Assembly (NCBI GenBank): GCA_965207735.1
Contig: OZ242296.1
Coordinates: 4,576,001-4,640,000 of the forward strand
Length of the DNA stretch: 64,000 nucleotides
Direction of reading: 5' to 3'
DNA from: Candidatus Versatilivorator sp.
Lineage (GTDB): Bacteria > Acidobacteriota > Terriglobia > Versatilivoradales > Versatilivoraceae
In this document: in pieces, positions 4,505-23,001 of the stretch
Layout: the number at the start of each line of letters is the position of its first letter
How positions within the stretch are numbered: position 1 is the stretch's first letter
Position numbers and translations under genes: made by a program
Notes under the pieces: model-generated
The model's database searches: none
What the model saw: the letters and a program-made list of their open reading frames with translations, nothing else
What the model was told of the DNA's origin: nothing

Positions 4505-5499
4505 GGCAAATCGTCACACGAATTATTATCCGGACAGGACTTCGAAGGGCTGGGTCACGGCTCACAACGTGGTGCGGAGCCGTACCAGAGACGGAAATCT
4601 AAATCGAATTAAAGGCAAAGAAAAGCCTCCCAATAACTGGTTCCCGTTTTTGAAACGCCTCCCATTCCCCCGCCCCCCATTTCCCCATGAGCGCGGGAAC
4701 CGGTTTGCATCCATTACCGAGGAATAGCGGAAAATAGGAAGTGGAAAGTTCCCCCGAGCCAACAGTCAAGCTCAATCAGAAGACCGATCGCCGGGACGGC
4801 AACCATTCAGGAGTGCGCCCCTCTGGGAAGATCTGACGAAATGGTAGAATGCTGAGACTGTAGGGCTCATCGACTGAAAACCTGAGTCACCCGAGTAAAT
4901 GAGAGGGGCGAAAAGGTCGTCGCCGGTGCCATATCGCGTGACGGCACCTGTTTCGACCCGCACCCCGTAGGTGTTGCTGCCTGAGTCGCGTCTTCTTGCG
5001 CGTAGCGCACGGCCTGTGTCGAATGCTGCGACACCGACTCTCTCTTCGTGTTTGATTGCCTACCCGGAGGGATCACAATGGAGGGAGCGACCCCCGAAAA
5101 CGAGGGGTGGAAAGGTGGTCAAAAGCGTGAGCCACCTGGTGAGCCACCTCGGTGAGCCACCCCCCGTCTGAAAGGTGGCCACCCATACGACGCCACGTCC
5201 TTGACCCCCGGAGGCGGATATCGTCGATCCATCCCGCTCCGGCCGAGGCCGCCTGGTCAATCATGTCCACGACCGCGTCGAGGCCGGCATGGCGTTTAAG
5301 GGTGTGCCAATCGGCTTCGGCGATGGCTTGCCGGAGGGCCGCCGCTGGTGTCTTGGCCGCAACAGGGTCTCGGGTTGTCCAGGTCTGGAGAACCCGCTGG
5401 GTGCGGTCGAGATGTTGCTAGTCCCAAACGACCGCAAAGACCTTTACAGTCCGGCTTGCCTTGCAACCATCCGGTTGAGTATGGTGGGTCTTATCTGTT

Positions 5500-5630
5500 C
5501 AAGAAATCAGGGGCGGTACAATCTGTTTGCCGACCGCACCTCCTCCCACACCTTCAGGGCCAACCAGTTCCGGCTCTCGTTGCCGGCTTTCGCCTATGTG
5601 TTGATCGAGACCCTGCTGAGGACCGGAGTC
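5500..5630 (+). pseudogene. IS1380-family transposase C-terminal remnant
   Basis: NLFADRTSSHTFRANQFRLSLPAFAYVLIETL resembles the IS1380 DDE C-terminal motif (DLFADRTS..F.ANQ.RL); the rest is missing. Confidence 0.7.
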
Positions 5631-6183
5631 GATCGGGAAGCCCAGGATCGGCTCGGTCGCATTCCCTGGGACTACGCCAAGGGCTGGCTCCGCCTCACTG
5701 ATGCCCTCAGCCTCGCCAGATTCGGCACGGTATTGAGGCAAGTTAACCCGACTCCTGCCACCCCTTCAACACTCACTAGAACCATCTTCAGGATAGCGCC
5801 TAATTCCGCTTCATAAGCTCCCAAACGCCCCCAAGTGCCAGAAGCTCGACGGTGGGCGACGGTGACGTTTTTCTGCACCAGCCTGGGCAAGTCCTATCCC
5901 CCAACTGCTCCCGGCCGGACCCAGGGCCATGGGCCGCGACGGCCGCTGGTGGATGTTGAAAGATCCTCAAGCGGCAAGTCAGGTATGTTACCAACAAGGG
6001 AGGGATTGACCGACGACTCCGATGGAGGGACACGGAAGGCCGTCGCACCGAACTACCCCGACAAGAGGAGGCCATAGTTGACTCAGTGTAAAAATTTATT
6101 GCCATCGGATAAAATTTTGTGATAGCTTCTTTTCGGGCAGCCGAAACAGGCTGTGTTTTTGCAAGAAGGTACTTGTTGTTCAA

Positions 6184-6445
6184 TGCGACTAGGAACGATT
6201 TACACGCTCGATTCTTTCGGGCGGCCCTTTGGGGCCTTTCGGCAGCCAGGACTCTCTCCCTTCTCCTGTGTCGGCCGCTGTCTACCGCGGGCGGCCAGTA
6301 GTGGGGCGAGGTGTTCTGGACAGGTCCGTGACTCGCACTTTGGGTACGAGATCCGACGGATCTTTAAGAGAGATAGTCTGTGGGGTGCAGCCATGCCGAC
6401 TCTCCTAGTTGCGGCGCTGACGGACGACGCTATTGGAGCGTCGGA
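6184..6445 (+). ncRNA. Putative retron ncRNA (msr-msd)
   Basis: Outer inverted repeat GCGACTAGGA (6185-6194) / TCCTAGTTGC (6403-6412); inner stems TCGGCA/TGCCGA and GACTCTCTC/GAGAGATAGTC; hairpins at 6223-6236, 6273-6296, 6349-6363 and 6425-6443; directly upstream of the retron genes. Confidence 0.65.
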
Positions 6446-6459
6446 AAGGAAGTGCAAGT

Positions 6460-6705
6460 ATGAACAACGCAGACCTTCTTGGCTGTATCCAGTCTCTTCG
6501 AGAGATCAGGACTCAGTTAAACCATGTGCTGGACCCCAGCATCGGTATGGAGTTCGACTCTGTTATAAGTCAACTTCAAGATTGTTTGGATCGTGGGTCA
6601 GACCATCGCCAATTGGCGAACATCGATAGAGTCATTCCGTTTCTAGGACGACTGATCGACTTCACAACAAACGTCTCCGACCTTATCGACCGATACAAGA
6701 GCTGA
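6460..6705 (+). CDS. Small helical protein, candidate retron effector
   Basis: ATG at 6460 with AAGGA RBS at 6446-6450; 81 aa amphipathic helical sequence; first gene of the retron operon. Confidence 0.7.
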   Translation: MNNADLLGCIQSLREIRTQLNHVLDPSIGMEFDSVISQLQDCLDRGSDHRQLANIDRVIPFLGRLIDFTTNVSDLIDRYKS

Positions 6706-6733
6706 TGCAACAGACTATTTTCTTTTTTCAAAA

Positions 6734-20753: not shown

Positions 20754-20757
20754 AATC

Positions 20758-20946
20758 ATGAGGTCCGACACGTTCATGACTTTTTCTGCGGGCAAGCCCT
20801 CTCCTGTTCGCGTTATCGACGATCCGTCGAAACCGCGGTGGGACGATCCCTTGACCCCTCCCCGGCAACGCGATGAGCAGGATCGTGCGCCGCAATCAGC
20901 AACTCCCAAGAAACAAGATCGTCAAAAGGCAAAGAGCACAAGCTAA
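20758..20946 (+). CDS. Small hydrophilic protein downstream of the protease
   Basis: AGGAGG RBS at the end of the protease gene, ATG at 20758, 62 aa Pro/charged-rich. Confidence 0.45.
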   Translation: MRSDTFMTFSAGKPSPVRVIDDPSKPRWDDPLTPPRQRDEQDRAPQSATPKKQDRQKAKSTS

Positions 20947-21411
20947 TCTGCTCCACCCTCACCCTGAGAAGCAATACCAAGCGGAGAGCCTCACCGCTCT
21001 CCGCTTTTGATTGTAAACACCCCCTAGCTATTCTCTCAGAGGCACACACACTTTGTTTTGGTTGTTTGGGTCCCACTCGGGCACGCAAGGTCCCGATCCA
21101 TACTCAAACTCCCCTCCACAGGGGGGGAGAACGGGACTTCCCAACCTGAGCAGTTCCGAGCAGACAGTGGCCTGCCGATGGTGGAAGAGAGGATTTCACC
21201 GGAAGCGGTGGTTGCTCTTCTCCCGCTCCTGTGGAACGCGACGCAGGGCATGTTTCGGATTATTCTTAAAGCCCGCGGCCGATCCGGTGGAGCCTGTGGG
21301 TGGGAAATGTCTCTCCAAGGAGGTGTGGGAAATCATTCCGTAAGTTCGTAACGCCGGGATTCGGAACCACGGGGATTTCCACACCTCCCGCAGGATCCAT
21401 GGGCCACTCAA

Positions 21412-22641
21412 CTATAGGGCCTCCAGATCCTCCCCCGACCCCTGGTCCAGGTAACGCGCCCAGTCGTCCATCAACGTGCGCCGGCGCTCGAACAGGTCGG
21501 AGCGAGCATAGGCCGCCTCGACCCGGTTGCGGACCACATGCGCCAGGGCCGCCTCGATCACCTCCCGGGGATGGTCGGTCTCTTCGGCCGCCCAGTCCCG
21601 GAAGCTGGACCTGAACCCGTGCGGCACGGCTGCAATCCCCTGCTCGCGGACCAGCCACCGCAGCTCCTTGTCACTGAGCGGCTTCCCTTGCCCACGGGTG
21701 AACACCAGAGGACCGGCTCCTTTGCCCAGGGTCCCTGCCGCCTCGAGAATCTCCAGGGCACGGCCACAAAGCGGCACCCGGTGTTGGCGGTTCGCCTTCA
21801 TCCGACTGGCCGGGACGGTCCATACACCAGCGTCCCGATCGATCTCCTCCCACTCGGCCCAGCGCACCTCGCTCCACCTGGCCGCCGTCAACACCAGGAA
21901 CTCGAAGGCCAGCTTGGCCACCTCGGGCGCCGTCGCTGCCTGCACCGTCCGGATGGCCGCAGCCACCTCCCGATGCGGCATGGCCCGCATGTGCTCGGTA
22001 ACGTCATGTTGGGGACCCAGGACCGGGCCGATCCTGTCGCAGGGGTTGTCGATTCTGTACTCCATTGCTACGGCCCATTCCAGGACCGCACGCAGGCGCT
22101 GGCGCACCCGCCGGGCGCTGGAGGCCTTCCGGTGCCAGATAGGGGTGAGGATCTCAAGCAGATCGGCGCTGGTGACCTCTGAGACCGGCATCTTGCCGAT
22201 GCGGGGGAAGGCGTACCGCCTCAGGCTCGCCATCCACTCCCGGTGGTGACGCCGGCCGCGCCAGCCGTCCCGCTTCTGTTCCAGCACACGTGAGGCGGCT
22301 TCAGCGAAGGTAGGAATGCCCTCGGTGCGGCGCTTCTCGGCAAGAGGATCTCCGCCCACACGGGCCAACTTGCGGTTAGCCAGCGCTTTCTCCCGAGCCT
22401 CGGCCAGGGAGACCAGGGCGAGGCTGCCGAGACCGAGCTCCCGGCGACGGCCACGGACGACGAGGCGTTGAATCCAACTGCGGGTTCCGCTGGGCTGGAC
22501 GAAGAGGTACAATCCGTTTCCATCGGCGTATCTTCCGGGCGGAGCGGAGCGCAGGAAAGCGGCCGAGAGGGCGTTGCTGGGGTGACGGCCGATGGGTTTG
22601 GTTTTAGGTCGGACAGGTGCGAAGTCCGTTACAGTATCCAT
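21412..22641 (-). CDS. P4-like tyrosine integrase with arm-binding domain, intact
   Basis: GRYADGNGLYLFVQPSGTRSW arm domain; catalytic R (TAARWSE), K (MKAN), HGFR, LAH, Y (AYARS). Confidence 0.95.
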   Translation of the reverse strand: MDTVTDFAPVRPKTKPIGRHPSNALSAAFLRSAPPGRYADGNGLYLFVQPSGTRSWIQRLVVRGRRRELGLGSLALVSLAEAREKALANRKLARVGGDPLAEKRRTEGIPTFAEAASRVLEQKRDGWRGRRHHREWMASLRRYAFPRIGKMPVSEVTSADLLEILTPIWHRKASSARRVRQRLRAVLEWAVAMEYRIDNPCDRIGPVLGPQHDVTEHMRAMPHREVAAAIRTVQAATAPEVAKLAFEFLVLTAARWSEVRWAEWEEIDRDAGVWTVPASRMKANRQHRVPLCGRALEILEAAGTLGKGAGPLVFTRGQGKPLSDKELRWLVREQGIAAVPHGFRSSFRDWAAEETDHPREVIEAALAHVVRNRVEAAYARSDLFERRRTLMDDWARYLDQGSGEDLEAL

Positions 22642-22715
22642 CCCCCCATTATATGGGGGATGGCAGTGGATTGCAAGGGATGTTGGTGGCAAGACAAGCC
22701 ACGGCAGGACTTATA

Positions 22716-22775
22716 TAAGACACTCATAAATAAGACAGTTATAGACACCACTGGACGGCTCTAGACATCACTGGA
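22716..22775. promoter_or_regulatory. Direct repeats upstream of integrase (putative arm-type att sites)
   Basis: TAGACACCACTGGA (22742-22755) and TAGACATCACTGGA (22762-22775), plus TAAGACA at 22716 and 22731. Confidence 0.5.
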
Positions 22776-23001
22776 TTTTGTAGGGACGTTGCGGCGGCGG
22801 CAGCATTTCACGGCACCGGTTCAAGCCGTGCGAGCATTATCGTCCTGCGCTTCCGCGCTGGCGTTAAGTTGCCCACACGCCCGCGCAACGTCAGGCACGG
22901 TATCGATTCCTACGGGCACGACTCGCCCCTCCTACACCTCCAAGGGTGTGGACAGCATCGGGCGGTTGCGCTACATTGTGACTCACACTTGGAGGTTTGC
23001 G

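Follow-up and report, generated by a model that had tools for sequence, protein, structure and literature searches.

Orphan integrase 3′ ends in a P4-type island seated in a dispersed repeat of a Candidatus Versatilivorator chromosome

The 64,000-nucleotide (nt) stretch of Candidatus Versatilivorator sp. DNA analysed here (GenBank assembly GCA_965207735.1, contig OZ242296.1; hereafter 'the window') contains an intact P4-type tyrosine integrase gene, int, followed by several co-oriented, 5′-truncated copies of its own 3′ end ('tails') with different cargo genes between them. That integrase gene marks the left end of a 29.3-kb mobile island, an identification that is well supported. On balance we favour the reading that the island sits in a dispersed repeat resembling repetitive extragenic palindromic (REP) sequences and that the orphan 3′ ends are relics of sister islands, one of them likely cut at the insertion site of a related integrase family (family E) and the others likely trimmed by deletions. 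An earlier note, made from the letters of the window alone, had read the array as the work of an integrase that targets its own gene. The window corresponds to G000:C1:4576001-4640000 of a closed 5.26-Mb genome (G000; positions outside the window are given in this notation), and comparisons within the genus cover 14 genomes, G000 included. The nearest named relatives of the window are labelled Candidatus Versatilivorator/Terriglobia, and about 70% homologues also occur in Gemmatimonadota, Vicinamibacterales and others.

The evidence for where the window's integrase, a member of family A, inserts its island comes from the ends of that island and of its sisters. The first base common to the family-A copies lies 164 nt upstream of the start codon; 16 such left ends occur in G000, every one in the same repeat motif and at the same first base, and 15 of them pair with a conserved right end at a spacing of 2.1-44 kb. 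On the other side, 16 of 17 right ends continue into the right half of the same repeat, and that of the window's island lies at G000:C1:4569533, 6.5 kb before base 1 of the window. The 15 family-A islands of G000 have their ends in a dispersed REP-like repeat beside the Rfam motif Acido-Lenti-1, with a shared core, GYCGCCGCC, inside a 22-nt palindromic motif that forms the 3′ part of Acido-Lenti-1 and usually also precedes it. Intact target-like repeats number 192 in G000, against one in two shuffled genomes. Acido-Lenti-1 is listed as a candidate RNA (PMC2864571), its function being given as unknown (10.64898/2026.10.21.760802); we suggest that it is part of a DNA repeat serving as attachment site.

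Empty sites were sought at 19 orthologous loci for four sister islands. One locus (L037) is an exact empty site of a sister island, with both flanks matching at 96% and Acido-Lenti-1 31 nt away, and at four further orthologous loci the repeat is intact but the right flank differs. At the window's own locus, relatives have the flanking PSD-domain gene beside a gene from which it is 45 kb distant in G000, where the gap is filled by this island and a 14.9-kb family-C island (G000:C1:4554020-4568883), the latter 0.65 kb from the window island's right end and in a related repeat. The 9-bp family-A core is absent from int on either strand, the best match there being 12 of the 22 letters of the motif, in the tail region. 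With the family-A ends in the repeat and no core in int, the attachment site is the repeat and not int; the family-A integrase thus appears to act at this repeat, the enzyme being assigned to its site by position. Five family-A islands share an internal int deletion (nt ~194-875) while keeping both ends (G000:C1:1087279-1089370, 3236912-3239331, 4406543-4408632, 5151281-5153372 and 4505241-4512893); they are non-autonomous derivatives that spread, akin to miniature inverted-repeat transposable elements. The use of a dispersed repeat offers site-specific islands a route to transposon-like copy numbers.

The window's integrase has the P4/IntA architecture (Arm-DNA-bind_3, Phage_int_M and Phage_integrase) with the R-K-H-R-H-Y residues located by motif at R255, K282, H341, R344, H368 and Y378; it scores 143 bits against NCBIfam PRK09692, under the cut-off of 434 for that family. 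G000 encodes 22 near-full-length relatives (9 of family A, 4 B, 2 C, 4 D, 2 E and 1 F) plus dozens of pieces, and relatives were matched in all 13 other genus genomes; with a truncated family-B integrase as query, close relatives of the whole clade appeared in 14 of 151 genomes of the class at an expect value (E) ≤ 1e-150. The nine full-length family-A copies in G000 are 94-100% alike. Families A, B, C, D and E are separated in the tree with full or near-full support, whereas family F, and E relative to the outgroups, are unsurely placed. Targets differ between the families: islands of A, B and C sit in three different dispersed repeats, those of D have their left ends where the hairpin module described below stops, those of E lie at int nt 1064-1075, one of family F interrupts int, in inverted orientation, at nt ~740-750, and the right end of yet another island abuts int nt ~193. 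The clade therefore makes a change of bacterial attachment site (attB) directly testable, since enzymes 54-95% identical use at least six targets in one closed genome, a natural series of specificity switches. As side observations, a mosaic island (G000:C1:2004797-2009020) joins a family-B left end and integrase to a family-A-like right end, its core matching the B target, and an identical element is found at int nt 1154 both in a near-full integrase gene and in a tail (G000:C1:2822201 and 3850495).

The site of family E became apparent from several loci at which an integrase gene breaks off at residue 358 and a full-length, divergent integrase comes next. The 12-mer C[CG]GA[CT]CATCCCC (gene nt 1064-1075, codons 355-359) is duplicated, at G000:C1:1144331 and 1133173, around an 11-kb island that follows the same ground plan, carries its own integrase (54% identical) and has the displaced int tail behind it, a complete example of the order int[1-358], E island, tail. 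Among 29 pattern matches, 13 are E left ends, each followed by an E integrase and together found in 8 of the 14 genus genomes: four lie in full-length int, three in partial int copies, three behind a CRISPR repeat with a 32-nt spacer, and three elsewhere. Independently of that search, in 9 of 11 E right-end matches the sequence goes on past the core as int, from nt 1076. The gene of family E itself lacks the core, with TDAP in place of TDHP. A family-E site inside int is thus well supported. E islands bring no replacement 3′ end, so that H368 and Y378 of the host integrase are parted from H341 and R344; the interrupted gene would be inactivated, a conflict between elements in which one island would kill its sister's integrase. 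The earlier note had placed an attachment site in this very segment of int and the old 3′ end on the far side of the insertion. Both hold, but for family E and not for the window's integrase, and the invaders, which carry their own integrase, are not the non-autonomous circles that it envisaged.

Downstream of the window's int lie four tails within the window (Table 1) and a fifth (gene nt 988-1207) in the same island 2.9 kb before the window starts. The intact integrase (22641->21412) and its four same-strand 3′ copies described in the earlier note are real and far beyond chance: the tails are recovered by tblastn against the island at E values of 5e-58 to 4e-18 and agree with one another at 76-92% across the 135 nt that begin at gene nt 1064. 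The absence of N-terminal int pieces was likewise borne out within the island (tblastn). Three of the starts, put at within about 30 nt of each other, fall within 50 nt, the third tail reaches 49 nt further 5′ than described, and alignment of all copies gives scattered starts (nt 861-1061) in place of the expected common breakpoint. Genome-wide, tail starts spread over gene nt 645-1075, ruling out a single breakpoint for all. Tails 1, 2, 3 and 5 were not cut at the E core, because they retain int sequence 5′ of it; tail 4 is the only tail in the window that starts in register with the E site. The upstream junction of tail 2 is shared with L079 and L147 and that of tail 3 with G000:C1:2976751, and neither an E right end nor any other left- or right-end remnant was found beside the tails of the window's island. 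Tails in other islands occur in both orientations (downstream of int in relatives, 11 on the same strand vs 4 on the opposite), and some adjoin insertion sequence (IS) DNA (G000:C1:1525595, 3849502). The succession of int, module and tail is met again in other genomes (L133, L137, L138, L143), and such blocks are therefore inherited.

That recurrence also bears on whether the array could be a mis-assembly of repeats, a concern in a genome rich in near-identical repeats, where short-read contigs break. We find this hardly credible: the tails are just 76-92% alike, and contigs from one short-read sample span 17566-21472, 10665-13038 and 10088-10534 with 0 differences, so the junctions in these segments are not assembly errors. 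The sample may be the source sample and hence not independent, and no single listed contig covers the whole stretch.

In front of tail 4 stands a single, isolated type I-E CRISPR repeat with a 32-nt spacer, which ends exactly where the tail and the E core begin. This repeat is identical to those of arrays with 32-nt spacers in one genus genome (G005) and to repeats in another (G013), and the first letters of the E core resemble the start of the CRISPR repeat. At locus L246 the same arrangement occurs with a different spacer and with the E island still in place, and the spacer of tail 4 itself is present in 12 copies among 94 core sites examined, six of them in G000. The E integrase probably accepts the CRISPR repeat as a secondary site, and the tail-4 junction would have been made once and then inherited. 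The spacer was also considered as decayed int, a match that is not significant (237 of 2000 shuffles score as well), and cas1 was not found in G000. Separately, at G000:C1:3860780-3862255, within an island, two direct type I-E CRISPR repeats spaced 1.44 kb enclose an ankyrin-repeat gene, and long inserts between CRISPR repeats likewise occur in L216 and L217.

These results leave little room for the window's integrase repeatedly inserting non-autonomous circles into its own 3′ end, each with a replacement tail. Five co-oriented tails without N-terminal pieces, an attachment site inside int and exchanged 3′ ends are what such self-targeting would predict; yet the island's ends and core lie in the repeat, as at the empty site L037, the tails start at nt 861, 988, 1012, 1039 and 1061, the known users of an int site have their own integrase and bring no replacement end, and the tails show no synonymous homogenisation. 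We regard it as very improbable. Integrons hold a row of cargo blocks behind an integrase, with a repeated sequence between the blocks. Here the integrase is of P4 type, with an arm-binding architecture, and not IntI; the separators are ragged coding relics; and the cargo is not bounded by them or by any one recurring site. Two other copies of the SNase-like (staphylococcal nuclease-like) gene, 91-92% identical, end at 16550 without tail 2; cargo 1 occurs as a block only in the window among the 14 genus genomes, and the other cargo blocks were not found as units in that set. The integron-like reading of the window, also put forward in the earlier note, is not supported.

Exchange downstream of int is nevertheless evident. 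The same downstream sequences stand behind integrases of different subfamilies, freely combined with upstream types, and the placeable crossovers lie near nt 950, 1033-1085, 1110 and 1160, a spread of nt ~950-1160. The 3′ tail exchange foreseen in the earlier note therefore holds for the sequences swapped between islands downstream of the int 3′ end, but not for its mechanism, in which invaders bring a new 3′ end. The exchange fits homologous recombination in the best-conserved stretch of the gene. In codons 341-398 the amino-acid distance falls to 0.06 (A-B) and 0.14 (A-D), whereas the four-fold-site distance equals that of the remainder of the gene (A-B 0.28, A-D 0.44); the 3′ region looks conserved because of its protein, and nucleotide-level homogenisation of the tail across subfamilies, which we had considered, is not seen.

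In the mechanism we propose, each integrase would insert its island at the site where it is found, lambda-style via a circle, and nesting of islands, later deletion and IS activity would leave int tails behind. Crossovers of RecA type in the 3′ 150-300 nt of int, placed there because this is the best-conserved DNA across subfamilies, would then swap downstream DNA and line up blocks of tail, module and cargo in one direction, the ragged tails likely being homologous-recombination joints. Four of the five tails would have such an origin, and the junction of tail 4 would go back to an old E-type joining of a CRISPR repeat to int, passed on as a block.

If instead the nested islands had simply been trimmed by IS-driven deletions, tails and modules would be inert and have no part in assembling the array. 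The ragged starts, the IS sequence abutting some tails, the scattered mutations within them and their two orientations elsewhere agree with such plain decay, but the downstream sequences shared across subfamilies need crossovers in or beside the int 3′ end, and no left- or right-end remnants accompany the window's tails; we think it quite unlikely. The tails could, conversely, be working landing pads, with an E integrase acting in trans to integrate at, and recombine between, their cores, moving cargo from island to island as a distributed integron would and diluting hits on live int. The core survives with 0-1 mismatch in four of the island's five tails, partial int copies and CRISPR-type tails do harbour E islands, the core is joined in register to two different spacers, and the commonest starts of tails in relatives are at nt 1061-1066 (15 of 46, from overlapping loci that are not independent). 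Retention of the core needs no selection, however, because the core lies within the most conserved coding segment, and four of the five tails begin 5′ of it. Nor do E islands prefer partial copies: they occupy full and partial int in a ratio of 4 vs 3 (4 vs 5 with CRISPR-type tails), without skew relative to the 14 full-length and 28 partial sites available in G000. As the SNase-like cargo has moved without its tail and no tail-to-tail circle was seen in contig data, we hold working landing pads to be unlikely. A similarly low chance attaches to a wider scheme that would make the clade a food chain within one chromosome, in which basal islands sit in repeats, sisters attack int at three sites and the hairpin module, tails serve as decoys or landing pads, and the attacker also takes CRISPR repeats and shuffles cargo in trans, yielding a distributed integron-like array.

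Several points weigh against our preferred reading of a repeat-seated island with relics of its sisters. A clean two-flank empty site was seen at just 1 of 19 loci, the others, apart from the four with a differing right flank, being without the repeat or short of the junction; the window's island itself has no exact empty site, as the intergenic region there is variable. For the two largest islands, of 42 and 44 kb, the nearest right end was taken as the partner; the E left-end pattern fixed 7 of the 12 core letters and left the upstream context free; and for family F, as for the nt-193 family, there is a single set of junctions, in G000. Single-nucleotide polymorphisms in the tails are too sparse for crossovers to be placed there, so that the exchange may be by RecA or by the E integrase. 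Finally, for excision as a circle no junction was found: island circle junctions did not appear in IMG/VR, JGI metagenomes or five runs kept as contigs, nor did tail-to-tail ones in those runs, a form of data that drops rare forms. Pattern matches to circle junctions (45 in JGI, one in IMG/VR) were all due to chance, none lying beside an integrase, and a single joint that 'goes back' in the contig search is located in flanking repeats and is no circle.

The clade is undescribed in the literature searched; the TIGER/Islander database and the supplement of PMC2864571, which may list islands or the repeat, were outside that search. Published attB sites lie mostly in tRNA or tmRNA genes or between genes, and the excerpt seen does not discuss the present case (PMC12884075). 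The islands resemble P4/IntA islands with tandem accretion (PMC5812530) in their arm-binding, middle and catalytic domains, the short direct repeats that bound them, a cargo of defence and accessory genes that varies, and nested or composite forms; unlike these, they target dispersed repeats and sister islands and not tRNA or housekeeping genes, and reach 15 family-A islands and 22 near-full-length related integrases in one chromosome. The tRNA/tmRNA attachment typical of P4 islands is not seen in family A, and the only tRNA gene in the window is at 61826. Like IS1397, IS621 and IS1594 (PMC3184786), they exploit a dispersed palindromic repeat that offers many safe intergenic sites and many copies, but those elements use transposases, whereas here a tyrosine integrase with lambda-like ends carries 2-44 kb.

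Family E recalls the helper-embedded phage-inducible chromosomal islands (HE-PICIs; PMC10111431), an integrase clade that repeatedly adopts sites in genes of another element, disrupts them without replacement and makes off-target insertions; family E too has its site inside another mobile element's gene and brings no replacement sequence, but whereas they hit a prophage late gene, family E hits a sister island within its own clade, in the integrase gene, and no phage helper came to light, the ORFs of one E island having been listed without a scan against phage families. In the archaeal suicidal integrases of SSV1, pTN3 and pT26-2 (PMC8371274) the attachment site is likewise inside int, int(N) and int(C) flank the element, and homologous recombination yields chimeric integrases. 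Those elements split their own gene, however, a trait said to be confined to archaea, whereas here an element splits another's and keeps its own intact: int is whole inside the island, the family-A core is absent from int, and the E gene lacks the E core. Phage PhiAP1.1 (10.1101/2020.10.09.333658) likewise takes a CRISPR repeat for its attB, and spacers can leave with it; its repeat is of type II-A and the element a phage, whereas here the repeat is of type I-E and apparently a secondary site of an island integrase, with just two junction types. By analogy, then, the system would work like P4-type islands with accretion, target like REP-seeking ISs and, in family E, behave like HE-PICIs. What is new relative to known P4-type islands is the use of dispersed-repeat targets and sister islands that hit each other's integrase genes.

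Table 1. Features of the window's island (window positions; attL, left attachment site; HTH, helix-turn-helix; RT, reverse transcriptase; ORF, open reading frame)
Feature	Position	Strand	Remarks
attL of family-A island	22642..22805	-	core GYCGCCGCC ~22801-22793, then 150 nt conserved non-coding end
Intact P4-type tyrosine integrase, family A, 409 aa	21412..22641	-	PF13356, PF22022 and PF00589 all over cut-off
Unoccupied family-E target core in int	21567..21578	-	gene nt 1064-1075, exact match
Cargo 1: trypsin-like protease (19983-20753), HNH (19385-19645), small ORFs	17780..21240	+	
Tail 1	17347..17746	-	aligned 17746->17405, gene nt 861-1202; unique upstream junction; E core, 1 mismatch, 17543-17532
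Island backbone module	16860..17305	-	long hairpin 17305-17180; GCGCCCT-type, oriT-like segment 17110-16960
Tail 2	16548..16745	-	aligned 16745->16568, gene nt 1039-1216; E core, 1 mismatch, 16720-16709
SNase-like cargo gene	16016..16543	+	label from earlier note; no Pfam, PADLOC or NCBIfam match
Group II intron with RT/maturase (13945-15312), intact	13467..15463	+	inserted in the islands' non-coding module
Tail 3	12918..13132	-	aligned 13132->12939, gene nt 1012-1212; short internal deletion; decayed; E core degenerate
Cargo 3: ankyrin-repeat protein (11871-12815), Cys-rich small protein (11456-11845)	11456..12815	-	
MobC-like gene (10973-11245)	10790..11245	+	minus-strand GCGCCCT motif 10808-10802
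Solitary type I-E CRISPR repeat (10612-10584, 29 nt) and 32-nt spacer (10583-10552)	10552..10612	-	ends where tail 4 / E core begin
Tail 4	10382..10554	-	aligned 10554->10400, gene nt 1061-1215; E core 10551-10540, runs to stop
IS1634-family insertion sequence	8200..10120	-	transposase 8274-9995
Type VI retron cargo: small protein, HTH, reverse transcriptase	6433..7973	+	PADLOC SP_VI, HTH_VI, RT_V/VI
Backbone module, partial inverted copy	5060..5230	+	not an island end
Further cargo of the same island: MgtE/CBS, MscS-type and ECF (extracytoplasmic function) sigma factor genes	1..4504	-	runs on past base 1 as far as tail 5 and the island's right end

The islands share a ground plan of left end, int, hairpin module, cargo, inverted module and right end; in a map of the 15 islands, the module follows int and, inverted, precedes the right end in most of them. 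It is strongly folded (z = -6.6), and its candidacy as a known plasmid origin of transfer (oriT) was dropped, there being no plasmid match. The GCGCCCT motif stands beside a MobC-like gene in L250 and L251 too. Relaxase PF03389 (MobA/MobL), the only relaxase family searched for, was not found in G000 and occurs in 4 of the 14 genus genomes, in none of them beside an island module. A small ORF before the right end of most islands (here G000:C1:4569670-4569960) encodes a putative excision factor.

That the four tails separate different cargo was confirmed, although the earlier description had missed the intact group II intron, the IS1634 transposase and the MobC-like gene between them. Its retron is of type VI, with the reverse transcriptase, HTH protein and small protein of that type. 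The 5′ end of a group II intron is found at about 45 sites of the genome, which fall into three target classes, namely the islands' non-coding module (three), an A-rich dispersed repeat and IS1380-type ends, and two further intron copies lie in the window near 44960 and 49980. An IS1380-family transposase remnant occupies 5289-5816.

Elsewhere in the window, composite dispersed repeats with unoccupied target sites lie at 28749-29520, 47899-47980, 49975-50420 and 53170-53325, with Acido-Lenti-1 at 29153 and 50138. Between 31000 and 41300, two gene copies 70-77% identical and ~7.7 kb apart are putatively polyketide-synthase-like, on the evidence of one motif.

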